Origin: Caldisericales bacterium | GTDB taxonomy: Bacteria > Caldisericota > Caldisericia > JAAYUI01 | Direction of reading: 5' to 3' | Assembly: GCA_022707885.1 (NCBI GenBank) | Contig: JAKIZT010000002.1 | Span: 34,458-98,457 of the forward strand | Length of the DNA stretch: 64,000 bases | Shown: in pieces, positions 1,653 through 64,000 of the stretch | Numbering within the stretch: position 1 is the stretch's first letter | Layout: every line of letters starts with the position of its first letter | Position numbers and translations under genes: made by a program | The notes under the pieces: generated by a model | Told to the model about the DNA's origin: nothing | The model's database searches: none | The model's input: the letters and a program-made list of their open reading frames with translations, nothing else

Positions 1653-1824
1653 CTAGACCTCCGAAAAACAATTTTATAGCAAGCCACCGCTCAATGCAAA
1701 TATTCAATGATGTTTCTAGCAGAAATAAAACCAAGTGACAAGCACAAAAATAATCTGTCGGTTTTAATCCGGTTGCCAGGAATCACATTTGAAAACATCA
1801 ATTATAATCTGTACGGGAGTCACA

Positions 1825-3555
1825 ATGAAAAAAAGGGTAATCATAAGAAAATTGGGAGTTGAGCTGGACTTTACACCACCAGAACCGCCAAAAAGACATG
1901 GGTTTGCTGAGAATTTAAAACACCTAAAAAGGGTCTTGCCTTACGCCAGACCATTGCTCAAACATTTTATTTTACTTTCGCTTTTTTCCGTAATTTCAGC
2001 TGCATTTGGGCTGATTCTGCCGTTTGCACCAAAGATAATCCTGGATAACGGGGTGGCAAAGGGTGATCTCGGCCTGATAGTCAATGTTTTGATGTTTACA
2101 TTCTGGGCAAATCTTTTTTCAATGCTTGTCGGATGGTTCAATGGCATCTACTCGGAATACCTTTCAAGCTACATAGCATTCAAGACCCAGGTAGATTTTT
2201 ACAGAAAACTCTCAAAACTTGATGAGGAATACTTCGATTCCCAAAGAAGCGGCGATCTCATAAGCAGATCAAGCGGACTTGCAAATGGAATTAGTTACAT
2301 CTCAAACTCGCTCAACACTGTATTCACACTTGTCGTAAGGATCCTGGCTATCCCAGCGGCAGTTGCAGTAATGGACTGGAGGGTTGCTGCATTCGGGTTC
2401 CCAACACTCATCTTCACTACAACAGCATGGTACTTTATCCAGAGACTGCTCCGGTCATATCAGAAGGTCAGAATGGACGCGTCAGGAAAACTAAGTTCAA
2501 CGCAATACGACCTCGTATCATCACTCTCGGATTTGAGAATGTCTGGCCAGACGCGAAGAGCTATGATGTCTTATATAAGGGAATACGTCTCGGTGTGGCG
2601 CATGGGTGTGGTCTCATCACTGGTCTCTTCAGGATCAGGGCTGGTTCAAAGCCTTGTGCTCGCTGTGGTATCACTCCTGATAAACATCTTTGGGTGGGGG
2701 CAGGTCACATCAGGTGCATGGACACTAGGTAAAGTATCTGCCATTACAATAGCATTTGGATATATAACATCGCCACTCCAAACCATGTTCTCTCTTTGGG
2801 AAGGGCTTGTTGGAACATCAATATCGATACAGCGTTTCTTTGAAGTCTATGATGCCAAGGAACTGCCAAAAACAGGCAAGGAAAAGATTCCGGATGGACC
2901 ATACACAATCGAGTGCAAACAAATTGTTTTCTCTTATGCCGAAAGCAAGGAAATATTGAAAGGGCTGGACATCCAGGCAAAACCTGGCGAGATAGTCGCA
3001 ATAACCGGTGATTCTGGAGCAGGAAAAACAACTCTATTAAAAATTATTGCAGGGCTCCTGAACCCAAAATCGGGGCATGTTGAAATAAACGGCACTGCAC
3101 TGGAGGAGCTGGATGGACAGGCCTGGAGAGGAAAGATAGGGTTTCTCAGCCAGCACCCATACTTTGGTCCCGGCAACCTGGTGGAAAATGTCACTTTCGG
3201 GCGCGAAACAAAAAATGACCCGATGGAAATGATAAAGCTCTGCAGGCTGTCAGGGGTGGCTGAACGGCTTGGTGACGGCCCGCTGGGGGAACGTGCAAGA
3301 AATATATCCGCTGGTGAGAAACAGAGGGTTGCACTGGCAAGAGTCATGCTGATGGACAGGGAGATACTCCTGCTGGATGAACCTCTGGCGCAGGTAGACA
3401 TTCCAACGGCCAAGGAGATATTTGCAGACATATCCCCAATACTGAGGAGAGGAACCACAATCATCATAACACACAACCCAGTGCTGATAAAAATGGCAGA
3501 CAAGGTGTACTTCATCTATGATGGCAAAGCATTTGAGGGAGGGTTAAATGTTTGA
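1825..3555 (+). CDS. ABC transporter, fused permease/ATP-binding exporter (MsbA-like)
   Basis: N-terminal polytopic TM region. Walker A GDSGAGKTT, ABC signature ISAGEKQRVALAR, Walker B ILLLDEP. Stops at TGA (…GGLNV*). Confidence 0.85.
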   Translation: MKKRVIIRKLGVELDFTPPEPPKRHGFAENLKHLKRVLPYARPLLKHFILLSLFSVISAAFGLILPFAPKIILDNGVAKGDLGLIVNVLMFTFWANLFSMLVGWFNGIYSEYLSSYIAFKTQVDFYRKLSKLDEEYFDSQRSGDLISRSSGLANGISYISNSLNTVFTLVVRILAIPAAVAVMDWRVAAFGFPTLIFTTTAWYFIQRLLRSYQKVRMDASGKLSSTQYDLVSSLSDLRMSGQTRRAMMSYIREYVSVWRMGVVSSLVSSGSGLVQSLVLAVVSLLINIFGWGQVTSGAWTLGKVSAITIAFGYITSPLQTMFSLWEGLVGTSISIQRFFEVYDAKELPKTGKEKIPDGPYTIECKQIVFSYAESKEILKGLDIQAKPGEIVAITGDSGAGKTTLLKIIAGLLNPKSGHVEINGTALEELDGQAWRGKIGFLSQHPYFGPGNLVENVTFGRETKNDPMEMIKLCRLSGVAERLGDGPLGERARNISAGEKQRVALARVMLMDREILLLDEPLAQVDIPTAKEIFADISPILRRGTTIIITHNPVLIKMADKVYFIYDGKAFEGGLNV

Positions 3556-7746: not shown

Positions 7747-8016
7747 AAAATCCTTTTTAAAGTTCGCATCTTTCTCAAAATTGGCGTTAACTATTAAAAA
7801 ATAATCAAAATGACATTAATGTTTAGCAATATATTTACTGATAGTTTAAAATTTGGTAATACTACGAAAACGAGAAAAGTTCTCTCAAAAACTGCAAAAA
7901 TAGGGTATTTCAACCCATTGACTAATAGCACTTATCTCGTAAAATGATAGCGGCTGTTTATTCTGTAGAGGTGAAAAATGAAGCATAGATGATTAGCTAT
8001 TGTTTTGTCTGCTCTA

Positions 8017-11000
8017 ATGTTGCTGTCATCTTTTGTAGCAACACCTTTAATTAAAAATGTTGCAAGCGCCACTTTATGGGTAAATGTAAAAGATCAGGCC
8101 TACATTCCTGGTCCGCCAACAAATGCGAATGTCAGCGTAAATACCGGGACTTCTACAGAAGCCTCGCTTGCGATTGATTCACTTGGAAGACCACACATCG
8201 CCTGGACAGACAACACTGGCACAAGCCCGGTTGCCACAGACATATTCTATGCCTGGTGGGACGGAACAAACTGGGTTAACGCACAGGGCACAATCTACAA
8301 CGGTTCAAATGCCAACGTCTCAAAAACAAGACTTGCTTCAATCAATCCATCACTCCAGCTCGATTCTAATGACATGCCACACATCATTTGGGTGGATGAA
8401 ACATGGGGAAACAACTACGAGCCTGCATATATACATTGGGACCCAGTTGATGCTCGCTGGGAGCAGGACAATGACTCCTCATATGATGCAACCGGAAGCT
8501 GCAGGATAAGCCCTCCTGGCCAAATCAACTACTACAACCCATGTCTCAGGCTTGATTCCAATAATCTTCCACATGTTTCAATGACAATGGATGACAAGGG
8601 TGATAGAGAAATAATTTATGCCAGACTGACTGCTGCCGGAACAACAAACTGGGTGAGTCATAACGGTACTGCATGGTCTGGTGGTGGTGGCATGACCGCT
8701 GTCATCGTAAGTCAAACCCCGGGCAAAGATTCTGAATTCTCATCACTTGCCCTGGATACAAACAACAGGCCACATATCGCATGGCAGGACATGAACTGGG
8801 GAGTTGCATGGGAAATCGCTTATGTCCATTCAAATGGCACAAACTGGCTCAATGCACCTGGAAATATATGGACACCAAACAGCCCGAATGTCTCCAACAA
8901 TATCCCTATTTCTATTAGGCCATCACTCGAACTGGACACAAATAACAGACCACACGTTGCATGGTCAAACATGACAGCCAGCGGTAATTTTGATATTTTC
9001 TACGTCAGGTGGAATGGCTCTTCATGGGTCACCGTTATCAATGTTGCATATAATGGCACTAACGCAAACATCACCAATAACACTGGTGATTCAAACACTC
9101 CATCTCTCGAACTTGATTCAAACAACAACCCACACATATCATGGTCAGACAACACCTGGAACAGCAATTTCGAAATTTGCTACTTCTACTGGAACGGATC
9201 AAACTGGCTCTGCGGAAACAAACAGACATATTCCCCAATTGATGGAACAAATGTTGTTGTCAGCGCCAACTCCGGTGCTTCCCTCAAGCCATATCTCGTT
9301 ATCGATACAGCAGATATGCCACACATCTCATGGGAAGACAACACATACGATTCAAATTGGGAAATAATGTATGTGAGGCTTTTCTTCAACATGACAGGCA
9401 CTTTTGATCTGACAAAAGAAGTCGACGTAGACGGAGATCTTGATTTCACCGATGATACTGCTCCAGTAAGGGGCGGTGACACACTCACCTATAGGCTAAA
9501 TTGGTCCTTTGACAATCCAGACAGTGACCCACTCAGGGGTGCATATATTACAGATGCAATACCAAATGGAACGACATACATGGGTGGTTCTGCCAATCCA
9601 GCAATTGCATCTTACTCAACTGATGGCGGTTTCACATGGATCACTGGTGATGCACCAAATGGCTCGCCAGGTGGGACAATACTGCGCTGGGCAATAGCAA
9701 ACGACGAAGAAGATGACCTAGTATTCACTTTCCAGGTATTGGTTGATGCAACCGTTACTTCAAATATCTGCAACAGGGCAACTTTCAGGCACCGTTTTGA
9801 TAGAAACATCCCGCTCGTATCAAATGAAGTTTGCAATACATCAGGTGATATTGGTTTTATAAAAACATCACCAAAAATAGATTACTTTTCCGATGAAATA
9901 ATCATCTTCACACTTACTGTGAATTCAGCATTTAATGCCTCAACAAACGTCATTGTAAAAGACACTTTCCCGGTTGAGCTTATGTATCTTTCCTCATCCG
10001 AGCCAGTCACCGTCAACGGAAACACAATAATGTGGGGTGTTGGTGATATGGCAGTTGGTGAGATCAGGACATTGACCATCTCTTTCAGGGTCCTTCCAGA
10101 TTACAATTTTGGCAGTGAGCCACTTGCAGTAACAAACTATGCCATATGTACAGCCAGAGGTGTTGAGCCAGTCAATTCTCAAGCTACCGTCACAATCCAC
10201 ACACGTGGCGCTACACTGACAAAAACAGTCAATCAGCGCTATTTCAAGAAGAACGAAATAGTCCAGTTTACTCTTGTTGTGACAAACAATGGTACAGACC
10301 CGCTCACTGAAGTTACACTTGTTGATGAATTGCCAAATGTTCTTGCATATATCCCGGTTGAGCCACCACTTGGAGAAGTCAAAAACGGCATTTGGACTCT
10401 CTATATTGGCACTGTCATGCCGGGTGAGTCACTAACCTACGTTCTAAGCTTCAATATTGACGAGCACCAGATATTTGGTGAAGAAACCCTGGAATTTGTA
10501 AACAATGCAATACTTTTCACAAACGAACTCGATCCAATAACGGCCAAGGCTCCATTTGGAATCTACAGGCCAAAGACCCAGATTACAAAAACCGCAAAAG
10601 CAATGGTGCTGAGGCCAACAGACCTTATAGTCTTCACAGTAACCGTTTCGAATGTTGGTGGTGATGTCGCCAGCGAAGTATTCATGACAGACCTGTTCCC
10701 AAGGGAATTCGAGTTTGTCTCCTCGAGGCCTGCAAATCAGGGCGGTGCAACTTCCGTGAAATACGATATCGGGGACCTCCAGCCAGGGGAATCAAAGAGG
10801 TTCGTACTGACATTCAAAATCAAAAATCCGGATATGCTTCCAAGAACCAGCAACATGGTGCTTGTTAACACTGGAAAAGTATCAGCCCTTGGCCTTCCAG
10901 ATAAATATGCCTACGCAACAATCATTATCGTTCCAGACAATGCAAGAAGAGAACTAAGTGTTGTCGCTACATGGAAGGGAATAAACACAAAGACCTCCGA

Positions 11001-11238
11001 AGGCAAAACCGGCCAGGAAATGGAGCTTACAATAGTCTGCAAGGATGGTGCTTCACCATACGAAGTCACTGTCGATTTTGGAGATAATTCCAAGAAAGAG
11101 ATTTTCACCGCAATAAATGAAGAGCCACACACACTAACGCACACCTACATCTCAGCTGGCGATTACAAAGTGATTATCTCTGTTGACGACGCATTCGGCC
11201 TTAACAAAAAGGTTGAAAGAACCGTCCACATGAAGTAA
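8017..11238 (+). CDS. giant secreted surface protein: about 7 tandem LDxNNxPH(I/V)(A/S)W repeats (propeller-like), DUF11-type conserved-repeat domains, C-terminal PKD-like domain
   Basis: Signal peptide MLLSSFVATPLIKNVASA. Repeats AIDSLGRPHIAW, LDSNDMPHIIW, LDTNNRPHIAW, LDTNNRPHVAW, LDSNNNPHISW, IDTADMPHISW. DUF11-like TLTVxNxG blocks. PKD-like GDYKVIISVDD near the C-terminus. Confidence 0.7.
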   Translation: MLLSSFVATPLIKNVASATLWVNVKDQAYIPGPPTNANVSVNTGTSTEASLAIDSLGRPHIAWTDNTGTSPVATDIFYAWWDGTNWVNAQGTIYNGSNANVSKTRLASINPSLQLDSNDMPHIIWVDETWGNNYEPAYIHWDPVDARWEQDNDSSYDATGSCRISPPGQINYYNPCLRLDSNNLPHVSMTMDDKGDREIIYARLTAAGTTNWVSHNGTAWSGGGGMTAVIVSQTPGKDSEFSSLALDTNNRPHIAWQDMNWGVAWEIAYVHSNGTNWLNAPGNIWTPNSPNVSNNIPISIRPSLELDTNNRPHVAWSNMTASGNFDIFYVRWNGSSWVTVINVAYNGTNANITNNTGDSNTPSLELDSNNNPHISWSDNTWNSNFEICYFYWNGSNWLCGNKQTYSPIDGTNVVVSANSGASLKPYLVIDTADMPHISWEDNTYDSNWEIMYVRLFFNMTGTFDLTKEVDVDGDLDFTDDTAPVRGGDTLTYRLNWSFDNPDSDPLRGAYITDAIPNGTTYMGGSANPAIASYSTDGGFTWITGDAPNGSPGGTILRWAIANDEEDDLVFTFQVLVDATVTSNICNRATFRHRFDRNIPLVSNEVCNTSGDIGFIKTSPKIDYFSDEIIIFTLTVNSAFNASTNVIVKDTFPVELMYLSSSEPVTVNGNTIMWGVGDMAVGEIRTLTISFRVLPDYNFGSEPLAVTNYAICTARGVEPVNSQATVTIHTRGATLTKTVNQRYFKKNEIVQFTLVVTNNGTDPLTEVTLVDELPNVLAYIPVEPPLGEVKNGIWTLYIGTVMPGESLTYVLSFNIDEHQIFGEETLEFVNNAILFTNELDPITAKAPFGIYRPKTQITKTAKAMVLRPTDLIVFTVTVSNVGGDVASEVFMTDLFPREFEFVSSRPANQGGATSVKYDIGDLQPGESKRFVLTFKIKNPDMLPRTSNMVLVNTGKVSALGLPDKYAYATIIIVPDNARRELSVVATWKGINTKTSEGKTGQEMELTIVCKDGASPYEVTVDFGDNSKKEIFTAINEEPHTLTHTYISAGDYKVIISVDDAFGLNKKVERTVHMK

Positions 11239-12857: not shown

Positions 12858-13484
12858 TTACTTAAATTGATCGATTTTATCTTGTGTAATTAATATAGAA
12901 GATTCAACGATATCTACCTTAGGAGCAATACTGTAATTGTATTCTTTTAAATGTTTTATTAGTCCATCGAGCTCATTATTCAAAGCGCATATCGATTGAT
13001 CTAATCCAAGTAAACCACCATTAGTAATTTTCTTGTTTACATTTCTACTTTCAGGTTCATCCAGTGTGATTAAATAACATTTAGATTTTCTATGCACATA
13101 CTTTAGTGCCACAGCTTCAAGATCAGCTTGTTTGTATCTCTCTCTCAATGTTGTTTTCGCACTAATTGCTATAGGACCTAATTGAAGTGTATATAAGATG
13201 AAATCGTAATTAACATTAGGAACGAACGCAACTCTTGCTTGCATATAAAAAGGAAGCAAATTTTCTCTAATAAACAAAGTAGCAAGACAAAGTTCAAAAA
13301 TTTTGCCATTTATTGCAACATTATCTTTATTATACTTATTTTTATATATATTCCAATATTGAACTATATAATCAGAAGGCTGAGTGTATTCAACTTTCCT
13401 AAAATCACTTACTAAAGTTTCAAAAATGTTTTCAGTTTTTGAATCTTTTTTTTTTACAATACCTATATCAAATAATAGACTCAT
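12858..13484 (-). CDS. hypothetical protein, candidate restriction endonuclease partner of the adjacent methyltransferase
   Basis: Start overlaps the MTase stop. Shares the AT-rich composition of the MTase gene. No motif recognised with confidence. Confidence 0.35.
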   Translation of the reverse strand: MSLLFDIGIVKKKDSKTENIFETLVSDFRKVEYTQPSDYIVQYWNIYKNKYNKDNVAINGKIFELCLATLFIRENLLPFYMQARVAFVPNVNYDFILYTLQLGPIAISAKTTLRERYKQADLEAVALKYVHRKSKCYLITLDEPESRNVNKKITNGGLLGLDQSICALNNELDGLIKHLKEYNYSIAPKVDIVESSILITQDKIDQFK

Positions 13485-14287
13485 TAAATCCTCCGATTTG
13501 TTTTTTTAAATTCAAAAAGATTATTCATTGTACTCTCTTTCAACAATCTTTTAAGCGCAAGTTGACAATAAGAACTGTCTATTTCAATACCAACACATCT
13601 TCTTCGATTATTGTGAGAAGCAATCAGGGTACTACCACTTCCCATGAATGGATCTAAGATTGTATCTCCAACATAACTAAACATTTTTATACATCTTTTT
13701 GGTAATTCTATCGGAAATGGTGCGGGATGTCCAACTTTTTTTTTACTCTCACCATTAAATGTCCAAAGCCCGTTTGTCCATTCCAAAAATTCATCACGCG
13801 TGATATCTGATATTCTAGAACCACTAATTTTTTTCCATCTTTTTTTATAAAAAACAACTATCAATTCTACCGGTGCAATAACATAAGGGGCTGACGCTGA
13901 TAACCATGAGCCCCACGCTGTTCTTCTTGATATATTTCCTTCATTCCATACAATTGTTGAATGATATTGAAAACCAATTTGTTTTGCTAATATAGTTAAA
14001 TCAGCTCCAACGCTTTGTTGGCCCCCTTTGTTTTTATCTAAAGGAATATTTAAACAAAATCTTCCATCATCTTTAAGCCAATCAAAAACTTTTTTCATCC
14101 ATTTTTCTGAAAATTCACAATATTCTCTATATGTTAATTTATCATTATGTTGATTATATTTTATATCAACATTATACGGGGGTGATGTGATAACTAGATC
14201 TATCGAATTTCTTCGAATACGTCTAGTTGATAATAAATCATCACAAATTATTTTTAAATCATCATTTTCAAAGATAACTTTTTTCAT
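13484..14287 (-). CDS. DNA methyltransferase, beta-class (N4-cytosine or N6-adenine)
   Basis: Motif IV VITSPPY near the N-terminus and motif I DPFMGSGST near the C-terminus (beta-class order). SPPY favours N4-cytosine MTases. Markedly AT-rich compared with neighbours. Confidence 0.8.
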   Translation of the reverse strand: MKKVIFENDDLKIICDDLLSTRRIRRNSIDLVITSPPYNVDIKYNQHNDKLTYREYCEFSEKWMKKVFDWLKDDGRFCLNIPLDKNKGGQQSVGADLTILAKQIGFQYHSTIVWNEGNISRRTAWGSWLSASAPYVIAPVELIVVFYKKRWKKISGSRISDITRDEFLEWTNGLWTFNGESKKKVGHPAPFPIELPKRCIKMFSYVGDTILDPFMGSGSTLIASHNNRRRCVGIEIDSSYCQLALKRLLKESTMNNLFEFKKTNRRI

Positions 14288-59559: not shown

Positions 59560-60210
59560 ATGTCCAGGCCAAAAAATTGCCGGTTTGTTGATCAAAGTTT
59601 TATAAGGACACGCTTTCTTCCAGACTCAACTCCAAATGGCGACATCGTTCTGACTGCCGACGAGGTGGAAGCGCTCAAACTTTCTGGAGAAGACCTTCTC
59701 CAGATAAAAGCGTGCAGAATGATGGGAGTATCAAGAACCACCTACGCCAGAATACTCACCAATGCATGCAAAAAAGTTGCAGACGCCCTGATCAACCAAA
59801 AGGCAATCACATTAACCGAAGGGCACCACAACATAAGGAAGATTCAGGAGACAGAAAAAATGACAAAAATTATTGCAGTACCAGTTGAGCAGGACACAGC
59901 AAATCCAACCGTGTCAGGGCATTTTGGCAAATCACCGTTTTTTGCAGTGCTCGATCTCGAGAACGGGAAAAAGGAGTTTCACTCATTTGACCATGGTGGT
60001 TGCGGAGATATAGCTTTTTCTCTTGAAAAACTCGGCGTAAAAGCGGTATTGGTCAAGGGGATAGGGCAAAAACCAAAATCTGTTCTTGACCAGCTCGGAA
60101 TATCCGTCCTTCTGGCACAGGGAGAGGATCTTGAGCAGGTGGTAGAAAGTTTCAAAAAAGGCTCAAGTGTAAATTTTGAGGGCAGCTGTAACCACGACCA
60201 CGGGAACTAG
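59560..60210 (+). CDS. DUF134 (UPF0251, predicted DNA-binding) fused to a NifX/NafY-like dinitrogenase FeMo-cofactor-binding domain
   Basis: N-terminal …LSGEDLLQIKACRMMGVSRTTYARIL… is an HTH. C-terminal …KIIAVPVEQD…GHFGKSPFFAVLDLENG…GCGDIAF…VKAVLVKGIGQKP matches the NifB/NifX-type fold. Confidence 0.6.
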   Translation: MSRPKNCRFVDQSFIRTRFLPDSTPNGDIVLTADEVEALKLSGEDLLQIKACRMMGVSRTTYARILTNACKKVADALINQKAITLTEGHHNIRKIQETEKMTKIIAVPVEQDTANPTVSGHFGKSPFFAVLDLENGKKEFHSFDHGGCGDIAFSLEKLGVKAVLVKGIGQKPKSVLDQLGISVLLAQGEDLEQVVESFKKGSSVNFEGSCNHDHGN

Positions 60211-60219
60211 CTTCCAGGT

Positions 60220-60819
60220 TCAGTACCCGTAGCGCTCCTCTTTCCATGGGTCGCCGTGTTCATGATAGCCATAGGATTCCCAGAAACCCAGTTTGTTTCG
60301 CGGAATAAACTCCAGGCCGGTGACCCATTTGGCCGATTTCCAGAAATACAGCCTCGGAACAACCAGGCGAACAGGAAAGCCGTGTTCCAGCGAGATTGGC
60401 TCACCATTAAACTTCAGCGCAAAAACCACATCATCCTGAAAAAAATCATGGAGTGGAATGTTTGTTGTAAAATCATTATGGCCATGGATCATGACAAATT
60501 TGGCCTCTGGCCTTATTTTCACAAGGTCGCGTATCACCAGAGCAGATATACCCTCAAAAACATTGTCCAGTCTTGACCAGCCTGTAACGCAATGGATGTC
60601 GCACCTGACCTCGGTCATTGGCAGTCCGGAAAACTCCTCGTAAGAAAATGATTTTTCCTCCTCCACCAGCCCAAAAATCGAGAATCTCCATTTTTCAATA
60701 TCAACTACCGGTGTCTGGCCATAATGCAAAACCGGAAACGAAGTAGTCTCGCTTTGCCCTGGGGGAATTCTTTTGTCTCTCTTTGTGTCCGGGCTTACAA
60801 CCACCTTTTTTTGCTCCAT
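60220..60819 (-). CDS. molybdopterin-dependent oxidoreductase, sulfite-oxidase/YedY(MsrP)-like catalytic subunit
   Basis: …VRCDIHCVTGWSRLDNVFEG… and …GFPVRLVVPRLYFWKSAKWV… resemble the Moco-binding core. Confidence 0.65.
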   Translation of the reverse strand: MEQKKVVVSPDTKRDKRIPPGQSETTSFPVLHYGQTPVVDIEKWRFSIFGLVEEEKSFSYEEFSGLPMTEVRCDIHCVTGWSRLDNVFEGISALVIRDLVKIRPEAKFVMIHGHNDFTTNIPLHDFFQDDVVFALKFNGEPISLEHGFPVRLVVPRLYFWKSAKWVTGLEFIPRNKLGFWESYGYHEHGDPWKEERYGY

Positions 60820-61039
60820 GGACGGGCATGATATTACCCCAGAAGCCTCTGGTCAACGGGGTTGGTAAAGATATTAGCAACAAATGATTTACAAATCATC
60901 CTCACCACTCACAGCCGATGTTTCACCTTCAGAGATGTTTTTTGTCAATCTTATTAAGATCTGTATTCAAAGCTGCCCATACTTTGAAGACGGTGACGCT
61001 TTGTATATGTTGGTCTGTCCAAACAGGCGATGTTTTTTC

Positions 61040-61068
61040 TTGACTTGGAGCAACGGCAATAATAGGAT
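61040..61068. promoter_or_regulatory. sigma70-like promoter for tRNA-Thr (TTGACT-17-TAGGAT)
   Basis: Hexamers read in the sequence about 11 nt upstream of the tRNA 5' end. Confidence 0.3.
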
Positions 61069-61079
61069 ATCAATCCGAC

Positions 61080-61155
61080 GCCGGCGTAGCTCAGTTGGTA
61101 GAGCAGCTGACTTGTAATCAGCAGGTCGACCGTTCGAATCGGTTCGCCGGCTCCA
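61080..61155 (+). tRNA. tRNA-Thr (anticodon TGT), CCA encoded
   Basis: Cloverleaf folded by hand: acceptor GCCGGCG/CGCCGGC, D-arm UAGCUCAGUUGGUAGAGCA, anticodon stem GCUGA/UCAGC with loop CUUGUAA, T-arm GGUUCGAAUC, 3' UCCA. Confidence 0.85.
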
Positions 61156-61271
61156 GTCTTTTCAAGACCACCTGTCAAGACACCCGCAAATATTGACTAT
61201 TAAAAAAACAAACAATATTATTTGCTAGCAAAGATATTGCCTGGCAAAAAGCACGGGCAAAAGGCGGGGCC

Positions 61272-61817
61272 ATGCCGGACGAAAAGAAGCTAACCGAAGA
61301 AACAATCGAATCTGAAAAGATGCTTTTTGACATAATCCTGAAGCTCGTCGACACAACAGACAAAACCATTCTCGACCTGGACTCAAAGCTAAACCAGATC
61401 TTCATTTTCTACGCCACCACAATGGGCATCCTGATCGGCGTTGTAAACAAAGACTACCTTACCTTCATCTTCACCGAAGCTGCCGACTACACGATAGTTT
61501 TTGCCGTTTTTGCACTCTGCTTCATAGCCACTCTTGCCCTGCTGATAAACGGCCTCTGGCCAAGAAAATTCGTTGAATTGCCCGATCTGGCATGGATGGA
61601 GAAACTGTCCGATTACCTAAAGGACCACCCGAAGTACACCCTCGCCGAGTTGGTCACACACGACCTGGAGATAACAAAAAAGTGCATATTCAAGGCAATC
61701 CACGCAAGCGAAAGGGCCGCAGACCTGAAAGGGTTCTGCTACAAAGCCGCGCTGGTGACGATCGTCCTCTCCCTCGTGGCGTTTTTTACTTCACTTGTGA
61801 TGTATTATGTGCCGTAA
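61272..61817 (+). CDS. three-TM membrane protein of unknown function adjacent to tRNA-Thr
   Basis: Cytoplasmic N-terminus, helices IFIFYATTMGILIGVV, IVFAVFALCFIATLALLINGLW, ALVTIVLSLVAFFTSLVMYYV. Confidence 0.5.
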   Translation: MPDEKKLTEETIESEKMLFDIILKLVDTTDKTILDLDSKLNQIFIFYATTMGILIGVVNKDYLTFIFTEAADYTIVFAVFALCFIATLALLINGLWPRKFVELPDLAWMEKLSDYLKDHPKYTLAELVTHDLEITKKCIFKAIHASERAADLKGFCYKAALVTIVLSLVAFFTSLVMYYVP

Positions 61818-61891
61818 GATTGATTTTTTATTTACATTATTAACTCATTCATGAGGTACTTTTTTTGTTTCTTAGGTCATATAATTGAAAT

Positions 61892-63685
61892 ATGGAAAAC
61901 TCAATTGAATCAATAGAAATGAATTTGAATAGTCTATTTCATGATTTTTATAGAGTCCCCCAATACCAAAGAGAATATGTTTGGGAGTACGAACAAGTAC
62001 AAAATTTACTGGAAGACGCAGAAGAAGAATTTGGAACTACAACTTCAACTAATAATTATTTTATTGGAACAATGATAACAATCCTTAATAATAAAAAGTA
62101 TGATATAATTGATGGCCAACAAAGACTTACTACTATATTTATATTCTTATGTGTTGTTAGGGATTTACTAATAATGGAGAAAGGCAAAAAGATCAATGAT
62201 CTTCAATCTCTTTTATGTAAGATAGCCAATTTTACAGATGATCCATCAGGTGAAATAGGCTCTGTAAAAGAATTTAAAGTTCATTTACTTTATAAAGATA
62301 GCCAAGATATCCTTGAAGAAATCGGTAAGAACCCAGAAGAAAGAGGTAGTATCGAAGATATTGATAAAAAGATTACAAATAAAACAAAATCTGTAAAAAG
62401 AATAATAAACACCTATAGAACTATTTGGTCTTATATGTATAGTTGGTCTGAGGATCAAATATGGAATTTTTATTTGAATTTCCTTAACAATGTAAGAGTT
62501 GTTAGAATAGTTACACCAAGTGAGTCTGGAGCTTTGCAAATTTTTGAAAGAATAAACTCAAGAGGTTTGGGGTTAGATAATCTGAGCCTGATAAAAAATC
62601 TCTTATTTATAAATGTTAGAAACAATAATGAGATGGAGGATATAAATATAACTTGGAAAGATATCACAAATAACTTAGAAAGTTGCAATGAAGACCCTGA
62701 TAGATTTTTAAGATACTTTATTTTTAGTAATTATGAATCAGATATTATTAAAAAAAGAGAGGCTTATAGCTGGTTTAAAAAAGATTTTAATAAACAAATT
62801 ATTGAAAAAAATCCTATTGATTTTATTAAAAAACTACATAAACAAAGTTTATTTCATAATAAGCTAATAAAAGAAAAGAGGAATTTTGATAACACCAGTA
62901 ACCCCTATTTAGAGAACTTATTTTATTTAAACACATCAGCGAGACAACCATTAATTTTGCTTCTGGCAGCCAGAGACCTACCAAAAGATTTATTCCAATA
63001 CTTATCACAGTGGGTAGAAAATTATTATGCTGTAAACCTTTTATCTGGTGGGAGGACTAATGAATTGGAAGGCAATTTCCAAAAATGGGCGCAAATATTT
63101 CTAAAAGAAAAGCCTAACAACAAAGAGCAACTAGATATTTTTATAAATAAAACGCTAAAGGAAAAAATTTTAGAAAAAAAAGATAAGTTTTATAATGAAT
63201 TTATAAATATGAGTTTGACAACAATCAAAACCTTATCGAAATTAAAATATATTCTTGCCAAAATAGAGGGTTACTTATACGCAAAAGCAAATAATGTGTC
63301 TAATTTAAGTATTGGAAATTACTTAAATAAAAATATTACGATTGAACATATTTTACCAGAAACAGAAGGGATATGGAGGAATAAGTTTGATAAGCCCCAT
63401 AAAGAGTATTATCAAAGATTAGGAAATCTGACATTACTTGAAGATTCAATAAACTCTTCTTTAAGCAACAGGGAATTTGAAAATAAGAAAAAAGGGTATT
63501 TTGACTCTAATATTATTTTAACAAAATCAATCGCTAGGAAACCAAGTGGTACTAAAGATACAAAAATAGATAAAATCTATAAAAATTGTTTAATCCAATT
63601 TGAAAAATGGGATTCAGTTTCAATAGAAAAAAGACAAGAAATGCTTGCAAATGTTGCACTAAAAACGTGGGGTATTATAGAGTAA
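61892..63685 (+). CDS. DUF262-DUF1524 fusion: GmrSD-family type IV (modification-dependent) restriction endonuclease
   Basis: N-terminal …FYRVPQYQREYVW… and DIIDGQQRLTT (the DGQQR ParB/Srx-like motif of DUF262). C-terminal …IEHILPE…LGNLTLLEDSIN (HNH/His-Me-like DUF1524). Very AT-rich. Confidence 0.75.
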   Translation: MENSIESIEMNLNSLFHDFYRVPQYQREYVWEYEQVQNLLEDAEEEFGTTTSTNNYFIGTMITILNNKKYDIIDGQQRLTTIFIFLCVVRDLLIMEKGKKINDLQSLLCKIANFTDDPSGEIGSVKEFKVHLLYKDSQDILEEIGKNPEERGSIEDIDKKITNKTKSVKRIINTYRTIWSYMYSWSEDQIWNFYLNFLNNVRVVRIVTPSESGALQIFERINSRGLGLDNLSLIKNLLFINVRNNNEMEDINITWKDITNNLESCNEDPDRFLRYFIFSNYESDIIKKREAYSWFKKDFNKQIIEKNPIDFIKKLHKQSLFHNKLIKEKRNFDNTSNPYLENLFYLNTSARQPLILLLAARDLPKDLFQYLSQWVENYYAVNLLSGGRTNELEGNFQKWAQIFLKEKPNNKEQLDIFINKTLKEKILEKKDKFYNEFINMSLTTIKTLSKLKYILAKIEGYLYAKANNVSNLSIGNYLNKNITIEHILPETEGIWRNKFDKPHKEYYQRLGNLTLLEDSINSSLSNREFENKKKGYFDSNIILTKSIARKPSGTKDTKIDKIYKNCLIQFEKWDSVSIEKRQEMLANVALKTWGIIE

Positions 63686-63724
63686 TTATTCCCGTAAACT
63701 TTCACAAACCCAATAAAAATCCAA

Positions 63725-63752
63725 AAGCCAGGGCACAAAAACCCTGGCTTTT
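63725..63752. terminator. rho-independent terminator (gccaggg-cacaaaaa-ccctggc plus T-run) after the GmrSD gene
   Basis: Perfect 7-bp stem, read in the sequence. Confidence 0.5.
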
Positions 63753-63792
63753 GGTTAATAACAAAACTTGTCGCCCTTAAAAGGGCATAAAA

Positions 63793-64000
63793 TCAACCAA
63801 ACTTGTGCTGGACGCCGTAGCCGCCCCTTGGGAAGTTCCAGGTGATGTTGAAATACGGGCACCCTATCCTGCAGGAGCCGCACTCGAGGCAACCTTCATA
63901 GACCACCCTGATGTGGTCTTCGTCCCAGATGTAGACTTTTGCCGGGCAGAAGATTGTGCAGGGCTTGCCTTCGCACTTCCTGCAAACTTCCATGTCGGCG
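63793..64000 (-). CDS. fixX: FixX-like ferredoxin (ETF-associated), C-terminal part; the gene probably continues beyond the window end
   Basis: …CEGKPCTIFCPAKVY…EGCLECGSCRIGCPYFNITWNFPRGGYGV matches the FixX ferredoxin-like pattern. The expected N-terminal roughly 30 aa are missing. Confidence 0.55.
   Translation of the reverse strand, partial: ADMEVCRKCEGKPCTIFCPAKVYIWDEDHIRVVYEGCLECGSCRIGCPYFNITWNFPRGGYGVQHKFG

Follow-up and report, generated by a model that had tools for sequence, protein, structure and literature searches.

Type IV restriction enzymes cut only modified DNA, such as that containing hydroxymethylcytosine (hmC) or its glucosylated form (glc-hmC), and need no cognate methyltransferase. 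The GmrSD family is defined by motifs in two domains (Machnicka et al. 2015, PMC4619093). The N-terminal domain carries a QR pair, (I/V)(I/V)DGQQRLTT, whose DGQQR core has a described role, and FxxxN, and the C-terminal His-Me nuclease domain carries (I/L/V)(E/D)H(I/L/V)xP, L(G/A)NLxLLxxxN, NxxFxxKK and W...W. HEC-06 (Hma-embedded candidate 6; Payne et al., bioRxiv 2024.01.29.577857) resembles GmrSD; cloned by itself, the gene defends E. coli, and it no longer does so when DGQQR or E-H is mutated. Here we describe a relative of these enzymes, a 597-residue protein encoded near the right end of a stretch of 64,000 nucleotides from a Caldisericales bacterium (assembly GCA_022707885.1, contig JAKIZT010000002.1, positions 34,458 to 98,457 of the forward strand), referred to as the window. 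The protein is quite probably a stand-alone GmrSD-family defence enzyme of the HEC-06/DndI-like kind; its gene would sit in the single-gene slot of a defence hotspot, and not in a tRNA-targeted element, beside a membrane-protein gene with a separate history.

The slot and its borders comprise the following features, numbered from the first base of the window.

61272..61817, plus strand: open reading frame (ORF) for a membrane protein of 181 residues, or 165 residues when counted from Met17 (ATG at 61320).
61818..63683: swappable single-gene cassette of 1866 bp with a guanine-plus-cytosine (GC) content of 0.274, made up of the GmrSD gene and its 74-bp upstream spacer.
61892..63685, plus strand: gene for the GmrSD-family NTPase-nuclease of 597 residues (Pfam, PADLOC and an AlphaFold2 (AF2) model).
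62111..62125, plus strand: DGQQR motif (D74-R78) of the DUF262/ParB-Srx-like NTPase domain, invariant in the alignment of homologues.
63341..63361, plus strand: IEHILPE (I484-E490), the E-H of the His-Me finger nuclease, followed by LGNLTLLEDSIN and NREFENKK.
63721..63754, minus strand: perfect 13-14-bp hairpin with a T-run, the fixX terminator, in the conserved right flank and outside the cassette.
63793..64000, minus strand: 3′ end of fixX (ferredoxin-like, ETF-QO/FixABCX cluster; Pfam Fer4_ETF_QO), which runs off the window.

Close strains hold different genes in this slot. Relatives were drawn from homologues of FixC, as a graded series, together with contig look-ups. In strain L094, whose FixC is 98% identical, a 91% match to the window (blastn) extends from 60133 to 61817, ending at the stop codon of the membrane gene, and resumes at 63684, at the stop codon of the GmrSD gene, with 96% identity onward. 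The slot of this strain contains a gene for a 453-residue ApeA-type HEPN protein (GC 0.26) in the opposite orientation to the membrane gene. A third allele, in strain L096, came from a scan of metagenome DNA with the right-flank hairpin, which gave two contigs. Here homology stops at 61825 and restarts at 63684 (blastn), and the cargo is an AT-rich, likewise oppositely oriented gene for a 452-residue KAP-family NTPase (Pfam 5.5e-40; PADLOC PifA 1.3e-54). L097 is identical to the window, and contigs encoding identical proteins, from the same species, all show one arrangement, the right flank continuing with fixX-fixC-etfA-etfB and uvrB; the complete fixX and fixC-etfA-etfB are visible in contig L001. 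The three alleles have borders matching to the base, and each is a single gene of ~1.5-1.9 kb. Taken together with the DUF4917/PDC-S21 genes of more distant relatives described below, the cargo has a GC content of 0.25-0.34 versus 0.43-0.47 for the host DNA. The hairpin at 63721..63754 is conserved in both L094 and L096. The same flanks in close relatives thus enclose different defence cargo, and AT-rich cargo that differs among relatives in the same slot marks the locus as a defence hotspot. A comparison of the three cassettes for shared end motifs, inverted repeats and attC-like sites gave chance short matches only. The 6-nt sequence CCGTAA, present at both borders of the window allele, was considered as an end motif and rejected, as it is not conserved in L094.

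Base composition sets the cassette apart from its surroundings. The GC content drops from 0.43-0.50 to 0.25-0.30 over ~61800-63800, and the lowest-GC 1.8-kb stretch of the window starts at 61801, with a value of 0.272 against a mean of 0.437 (standard deviation 0.035), ~4.7 standard deviations below. The GmrSD ORF has a GC content of 0.276, and of 0.226 at third codon positions (GC3), compared with 0.436 for the whole window and 0.455-0.55 for the genes around it. A first-pass annotation of the window had called the gene far more AT-rich than its background and suggested horizontal acquisition at a tRNA hotspot; the windowed values agree with the acquisition. The gene is compositionally foreign and horizontally acquired, because its GC and GC3 are low, in a stretch 4.7 standard deviations below the window mean, its nearest homologue is 39% identical and its family is common on plasmids. 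GmrSD family members occur in 805 plasmid records, 520 of them conjugative, and in a few phages, none of them close to the 597-residue protein, whose closest non-self homologues in a search of 5.8 billion proteins are 34-39% identical.

Its sequence makes the product a member of the GmrSD family in a single chain, in which both the NTPase motifs and the His-Me nuclease motifs are complete. Pfam membership was taken as both domains on one polypeptide, each above its gathering threshold, and the protein has both: PF03235 (GmrSD_N) matches residues 18-239 at 3.4e-37 (128.9 bits; cut-off 33.2) and PF07510 (GmrSD_C) residues 429-587 at 6.4e-24 (84.9 bits; cut-off 23). The DUF262(DGQQR)-DUF1524 fusion proposed at first pass is therefore confirmed by the profile search, with its motifs intact. 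The N-domain contains YQR (25-27), IIDGQQRLTT (72-81) and FERIN (218-222). The C-domain contains IEHILPE (484-490), LGNLTLLEDSIN, NREFENKK (526-533) and W573...W593, the final N of LGNLTLLEDSIN sitting one residue later than in the 2015 consensus (PMC4619093). An alignment with 49 homologues shows Q26, R27, D74-R78, F218 and N222 to be invariant in the first domain and E485, H486 and N512 in the second, with N521 and N526 conserved in at least 90%. The best full-length PADLOC match is Orf5 (1.7e-88), a label that may stand for the dnd-cluster ORF later named DndI, to judge by the structural match to DndI described below. The HEC-06 profiles PDLC04157 (1.3e-78, residues 5-555), PDLC04155 (1.8e-67, residues 1-594) and PDLC04154 (1.8e-61) also match. 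SspE models match up to 4.7e-22, which is partial and far weaker than Orf5 or HEC-06, and the classical type IV profile mREase_IV matches the N-terminal part only, at 4e-13.

Three of the nearest homologues lie inside Hma-like (helicase, methylase, ATPase) or type I restriction-modification (R-M) clusters. In L100 (1-17830) and L103 (4986-14658) the homologue stands beside a ResIII helicase and a large N6_N4 methylase in an Hma-like arrangement, with an AAA ATPase in L100 only; the genes embedded alongside it are TIR_2 and 8xMP in L100 and DUF7380/EMARD_N in L103. In L102 (3320-13042) it is placed between hsdS and hsdR of a type I R-M system, adjoining a DUF4268 gene. The window locus shows no embedding in Hma, BREX, DISARM or type I R-M, its neighbours being the membrane gene, described below as PycTM-like, and fixX. 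Embedding is the context that led to the discovery of the HEC-06 family and is not a functional requirement, since HEC-06 cloned by itself still defends. Among the ORFs of the locus no methyltransferase gene adjoins the GmrSD gene, which is compatible with a type IV enzyme and is no proof of one.

The AF2 model, built from 50 sequences, has a mean predicted local distance difference test score (pLDDT) of 90.1 and a predicted template modelling score of 0.82. Its top match among solved folds (Foldseek) is DndI (9jfl), with a template modelling score (TM-score) of 0.64-0.66 over ~590 residues, an E value of 6.5e-17 and 16-17% identity. DndI ranks ahead of SspE and BrxU, and Cas9 HNH domains match weakly. 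A profile of the subfamily matches DndI 9jfl over its full length (7.8e-34). For BrxU (7p9k) the TM-score is 0.35 and the profile match, at 5e-5 across 34 residues, is marginal. The model predicts a ParB/Srx-like N-domain and a beta-beta-alpha-metal nuclease fold with a helical linker between them. This resemblance raises another possibility, namely a DndI/SspE-type enzyme that senses phosphorothioate (PT) marks, treats PT-marked DNA as self and cuts unmarked DNA, and so needs a dnd or ssp module elsewhere in the genome. DndI is both the closest solved structure and the best profile-to-PDB match, and the SspE models of PADLOC respond to the protein. In DndI and SspE an aromatic residue in a hydrophobic cavity of the N-domain, Y25 and Y30, respectively, senses PT (PMC11662687), and Y25 of the window protein aligns with both. 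However, position 25 is aromatic throughout the subfamily (F or Y, with F as the consensus) and hence is not diagnostic, and identity to DndI is just 16-17%. Nothing resembling a Dnd, Ssp or other PT-modification protein more strongly than ~1e-14 occurs among the 53 remaining ORFs of the window, the adjoining 10 kb on the right contain no such gene, and genetic linkage to a PT module (dndBCDE/iscS or sspABCD, with dndFGH included) is absent from these 74 kb. The three nearest homologues are found in Hma-like or type I R-M contexts and not in dnd clusters. Exchange as a single cassette would also be expected to harm a PT-less host if non-PT DNA were attacked. The lack of dnd and ssp genes across 74 kb and of dnd linkage among the nearest homologues speaks against a PT-marked-self enzyme, which we regard as improbable.

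The first-pass annotation placed both the membrane gene and the GmrSD gene in an islet next to a tRNA gene.

61080..61155, plus strand: tRNA-Thr(TGT), found with ARAGORN; CCA is encoded; a conserved backbone gene adjoining the Oxidored_molyb gene.

The tRNA gene, the three-segment membrane ORF at 61272-61817 and the DUF262-DUF1524 ORF at 61892-63685 are all as it described them (ARAGORN, the ORF list and three hydrophobic segments). The tRNA is the only one in the window, and it is retained in strain L094 and, at 96% identity, in the sister species L088. The corresponding explanation is that membrane protein and GmrSD gene were inserted as a two-gene unit at the 3′ end of tRNA-Thr, the traces of an integrase having since decayed. 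tRNA genes are classic integration sites, and L088 shows no homology to the stretch from the tRNA to fixX (61157-63796), where it has other genes. The alleles in L094 and L096 largely refute this explanation. The membrane gene persists at 93% nucleotide identity where the GmrSD gene has been replaced, and the two genes differ in GC (0.478 versus 0.276) and GC3 (0.65 versus 0.23). The independent histories that the same annotation had offered as an option, from the higher GC content of the membrane gene, are upheld by this synteny. Its report of no integrase and no attR repeat also holds: with up to 3 mismatches allowed, the 3′ end of tRNA-Thr has no second copy in the window, the region is not bracketed by any significant direct repeat, and no integrase ORF is present in the window or the extended right flank. 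The pair of marks that defines a tRNA-integrated island, an integrase together with a directly repeated tRNA 3′ end at the far border, is thus missing from the locus. The variable unit (61818-63683) is a single-gene cassette that begins 660 bp from the tRNA, and relatives carry AT-rich cargo by fixX with no tRNA in the stretches examined, so that a two-gene islet at a tRNA hotspot had to be given up; we consider it very unlikely.

More distant relatives point to fixX. The sister species L088, with 85% identity in FixC, retains both the Oxidored_molyb gene and tRNA-Thr. Its tRNA-fixX interval contains a DUF1761 gene, an AT-rich DUF4917 gene (PADLOC PDC-S21, 1.1e-51), a YbjQ-like gene and a 61-residue ORF. 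In L095 and L089-L091 AT-rich DUF4917/PDC-S21 genes lie directly beside fixCX, and no tRNA is present in the stretches examined. These DUF4917/SIR2-like genes, with a GC content of 0.25-0.32, are found by fixX at 13127-14284 in L088, 3029-3997 in L095 and 11640-12725 in L091. Their products share 29-33% identity with one another, versus 70-78% for FixC, so that vertical inheritance beside fixX was rejected and the genes are independent acquisitions at the same place. The constant landmark of the hotspot is therefore the 3′ end of fixX and not the tRNA, as the relatives carry AT-rich cargo by fixX, sometimes without a tRNA nearby. L088 also has, at 13018-13111 inside its variable region, a 94-bp copy of the fixX 3′ end (82% identical) that abuts the DUF4917 gene, 1.45 kb away from fixX proper. 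The copy has the look of a trace left when the YbjQ-like and 61-residue genes were later inserted at the end of fixX. The Oxidored_molyb protein was tried as a synteny anchor in the genome collection; it belongs to a widespread family, gave best matches of 59-63% in unrelated phyla and yielded no close relative.

The membrane gene on the left border of the slot is preceded by two further features.

61193..61221, plus strand: putative sigma-70-like promoter (TTGACT-17-TATTAT, 10/12) upstream of the membrane gene, from a consensus scan only.
61266..61269, plus strand: G4 homopolymer directly before the ATG at 61272 of the membrane gene.

The number of sigma-70-like sites in the region does not exceed that in shuffled sequences, making this promoter a weak lead. 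The start of the ORF is uncertain. The ATG at 61272 is ATA in L094, and the G4 reads G5 in P0001, L094 and L096, so that a TTG located 17 codons upstream comes into frame and the protein would be 198 residues long; the difference may reflect true variation in length or an assembly error at the homopolymer. In both cases only Met17 (ATG at 61320) is conserved. The gene itself is real and under strong purifying selection, because between the window and L094 it shows 31 synonymous and 7 non-synonymous changes, a ratio of non-synonymous to synonymous substitution rates (dN/dS) of 0.056. It is present in both L094 and L096 and belongs to the backbone that this species group conserves. With its GC of 0.478 and GC3 of 0.65, it is an older, host-adapted and selectively maintained gene with a history separate from that of the GmrSD gene.

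The membrane protein has hydrophobic segments at residues 40-58, 65-97 and 152-181. It matches nothing in Pfam, PADLOC or NCBIfam, the PycTM and 2TM-effector profiles being silent at E values up to 10, and a word-indexed protein search returned its own cluster only. Its sole relative among 1.84 billion cluster representatives is P0242 (HMMER, E 2.1e-4, 31% identity), which is collinear with it from Met17, the residue that aligns with residue 1 of P0242. This similarity goes beyond hydropathy: the alignment score is 134 versus 48 ± 11 for block-5 shuffles (z 7.8), and none of 1000 shuffles reaches it. P0242 is a PycTM (PF18967 1.3e-11; PADLOC 8.9e-35), and its gene lies directly upstream of a PycC cyclase gene (3.2e-78), the typical gene order of Pycsar systems (PMC13069673). 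Like P0242, the window protein has three hydrophobic segments, a D-x-K motif before the first and P-R after the second. Unlike Pycsar as defined, it reaches no PycTM profile and has no adjacent cyclase, so that the link is transitive via P0242. A PycC cyclase was found neither by phmmer with a PycC sequence in the window and L001 (74 kb) nor by a PADLOC scan of the window ORFs. An AF2 model of the membrane protein has a pLDDT of 62 and retrieves only generic helical bundles from the PDB (Foldseek, E at least 0.19). Homology to the DUF1761 protein at the equivalent position in L088 was considered and rejected (E 1.8). The most fitting description is a PycTM-like orphan, very divergent and retained whichever cargo fills the slot.

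Kinship to a genuine Pycsar effector invites the view that the two genes form one system, a PycTM-like membrane-disrupting abortive infection effector with the slot gene as its sensor or activator. The genes are neighbours in the same orientation, separated by 74 bp that contain no terminator, and the GmrSD gene has no obvious promoter or Shine-Dalgarno sequence. The slot starts at the stop codon of the membrane gene, the position taken by PycC in canonical PycTM-PycC operons (PMC13069673), and the membrane gene is under strong purifying selection though no cyclase is detected nearby. Yet the same membrane gene stands beside ApeA-HEPN and KAP/PifA-like genes that converge on it, and no PycTM-like gene adjoins the nearest GmrSD homologues, which are set in Hma-like or type I R-M systems. 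ApeA, from the work of Gao and colleagues in 2020, and PifA, from the F-plasmid pif literature, reportedly defend as single genes. HEC-06 has been shown to do so. A partnership specific to the GmrSD protein is unlikely because the membrane gene is equally kept next to the oppositely oriented ApeA-HEPN and KAP cassettes, and a two-gene system has little probability in our view. The first-pass suggestion of an unrecognised abortive-infection-like partner accordingly loses the partner and keeps the abortive-infection flavour, through the distant PycTM kinship. Two further ideas, which together we hold to be a long shot, are that the PycTM-like gene might be a signal-independent membrane effector or scaffold common to any module in the slot, or that the exact borders might reflect an undescribed site-specific exchange that replaced the PycC of a Pycsar operon.

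A stand-alone GmrSD-family enzyme in a single-gene slot would act as follows, by analogy with HEC-06, DndI, SspE, BrxU and Eco94GmrSD. NTP hydrolysis by the DUF262/ParB-Srx-like N-domain would gate the C-terminal DUF1524 His-Me (HNH-type) nuclease, which would nick or cut the DNA of an invading phage or plasmid and spare that of the host. The discriminating cue would most probably be phage DNA modification, as in type IV restriction, a cue favoured because the copy stands alone and has no modification genes in its vicinity. Type IV restriction is a putative label here, the closest relatives being HEC-06-like and DndI-like and not classical GmrSD or BrxU. The slot would extend from the conserved PycTM-like gene to the fixX terminator, with the GmrSD gene as its present occupant, whose transcription may also end at the hairpin.

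Several points weigh against this interpretation. Only three strain-level alleles were recovered, and among these an empty slot was never seen. The turnover of cargo, most likely by horizontal transfer and homologous recombination in the conserved flanks, is read from the pattern alone, and no mechanism for the original insertions was found in the form of end motifs, an integrase or att repeats. The available part of the HEC-06 preprint does not state a need for modified DNA (bioRxiv 2024.01.29.577857), and DndI spares PT-marked self DNA and cuts unmarked DNA, the reverse of type IV logic (PMC11662687). Neither a Shine-Dalgarno sequence nor a clear promoter belongs to the GmrSD ORF itself, so that its expression is a prediction. 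This hints at a leaderless transcript, at read-through expression or at a donor lineage poor in Shine-Dalgarno sequences. A TATAAT (61880-61885) lies 6 nt ahead of the GmrSD ATG, and the ApeA cassette of L094 instead has a canonical AGGAGG.

Elsewhere in the window, a second low-GC patch (~0.32) at 12858-14287 on the minus strand contains a type II R-M-like pair and is probably another acquired defence module. One gene encodes a 267-residue N6_N4 DNA methyltransferase (PF01555 1.8e-48; SPPY motif; PADLOC MTase_II 5.4e-95) and the other a 208-residue ORF with a weak RE_BsaWI match (2.3e-4). A 1077-residue ORF at 8005-11238 on the plus strand carries many repeats of D(S/T)NNxPH(I/V)(A/S)W and resembles a repeat-rich surface or beta-propeller-like protein. 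The 588-residue ORF at 1789-3555, also on the plus strand, shows partial PADLOC matches to mad3 (5e-26, over the C-terminal 80 residues) and to AriA; the product is probably an ABC/AAA-type ATPase of a generic kind and not a defence protein.

The locus offers a clean, well-delimited case of how defence genes turn over in an anaerobic lineage that is uncultivated. Its slot is occupied in turn by members of at least four unrelated single-gene defence families, namely GmrSD/HEC-06-like, ApeA-HEPN, KAP/PifA-like and DUF4917/PDC-S21 genes, and in metagenomes of the clade new defence genes could be sought by looking in this slot, a ‘guilt by location’ approach. With at most 39% identity to any other in the search of 5.8 billion, the GmrSD protein would be a divergent test case for HEC-06/DndI-like recognition. 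The orphan PycTM-like gene raises the small question of whether Pycsar-type effectors can function without a neighbouring cyclase.

Integrase-less defence hotspots between conserved core genes have been described in E. coli and Pseudomonas. The fixX locus shares with them its conserved flanks, its variable cargo of lower GC content and the absence of mobility genes. It differs in that the slot holds a single gene with exact borders, one of which is the stop codon of the PycTM-like gene. HEC-06 has the same domain order as the occupant (DUF262, helical linker, DUF1524), a similar length of ~560-600 residues, DGQQR and the E-H nuclease motif (EHICP versus EHILP in the window protein). It was found embedded in Hma or type I R-M systems, as are the nearest homologues of the window protein. 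In contrast, the window gene has no multi-gene system around it and stands alone in a single-gene slot, and its likeness to HEC-06 is measured by PADLOC profiles. DndI, of the IscS-DndBCDE-DndI system (PMC11662687), corresponds in size, DGQQR motif, HNH motif and the aromatic residue at position 25; unlike the window protein, it depends on PT marks in host DNA, and the window locus bears no sign of PT modification. Classical GmrSD, Eco94GmrSD and BrxU belong to the same Pfam families and have the DGQQR and D/E-H-N-N motifs, and the window protein is likewise a single-chain fusion, with a similarity in sequence and fold that is much weaker than that to HEC-06 and DndI. The current understanding of these systems is not overturned; both components are of known kinds, a HEC-06/DndI-like GmrSD gene and an ordinary defence hotspot.

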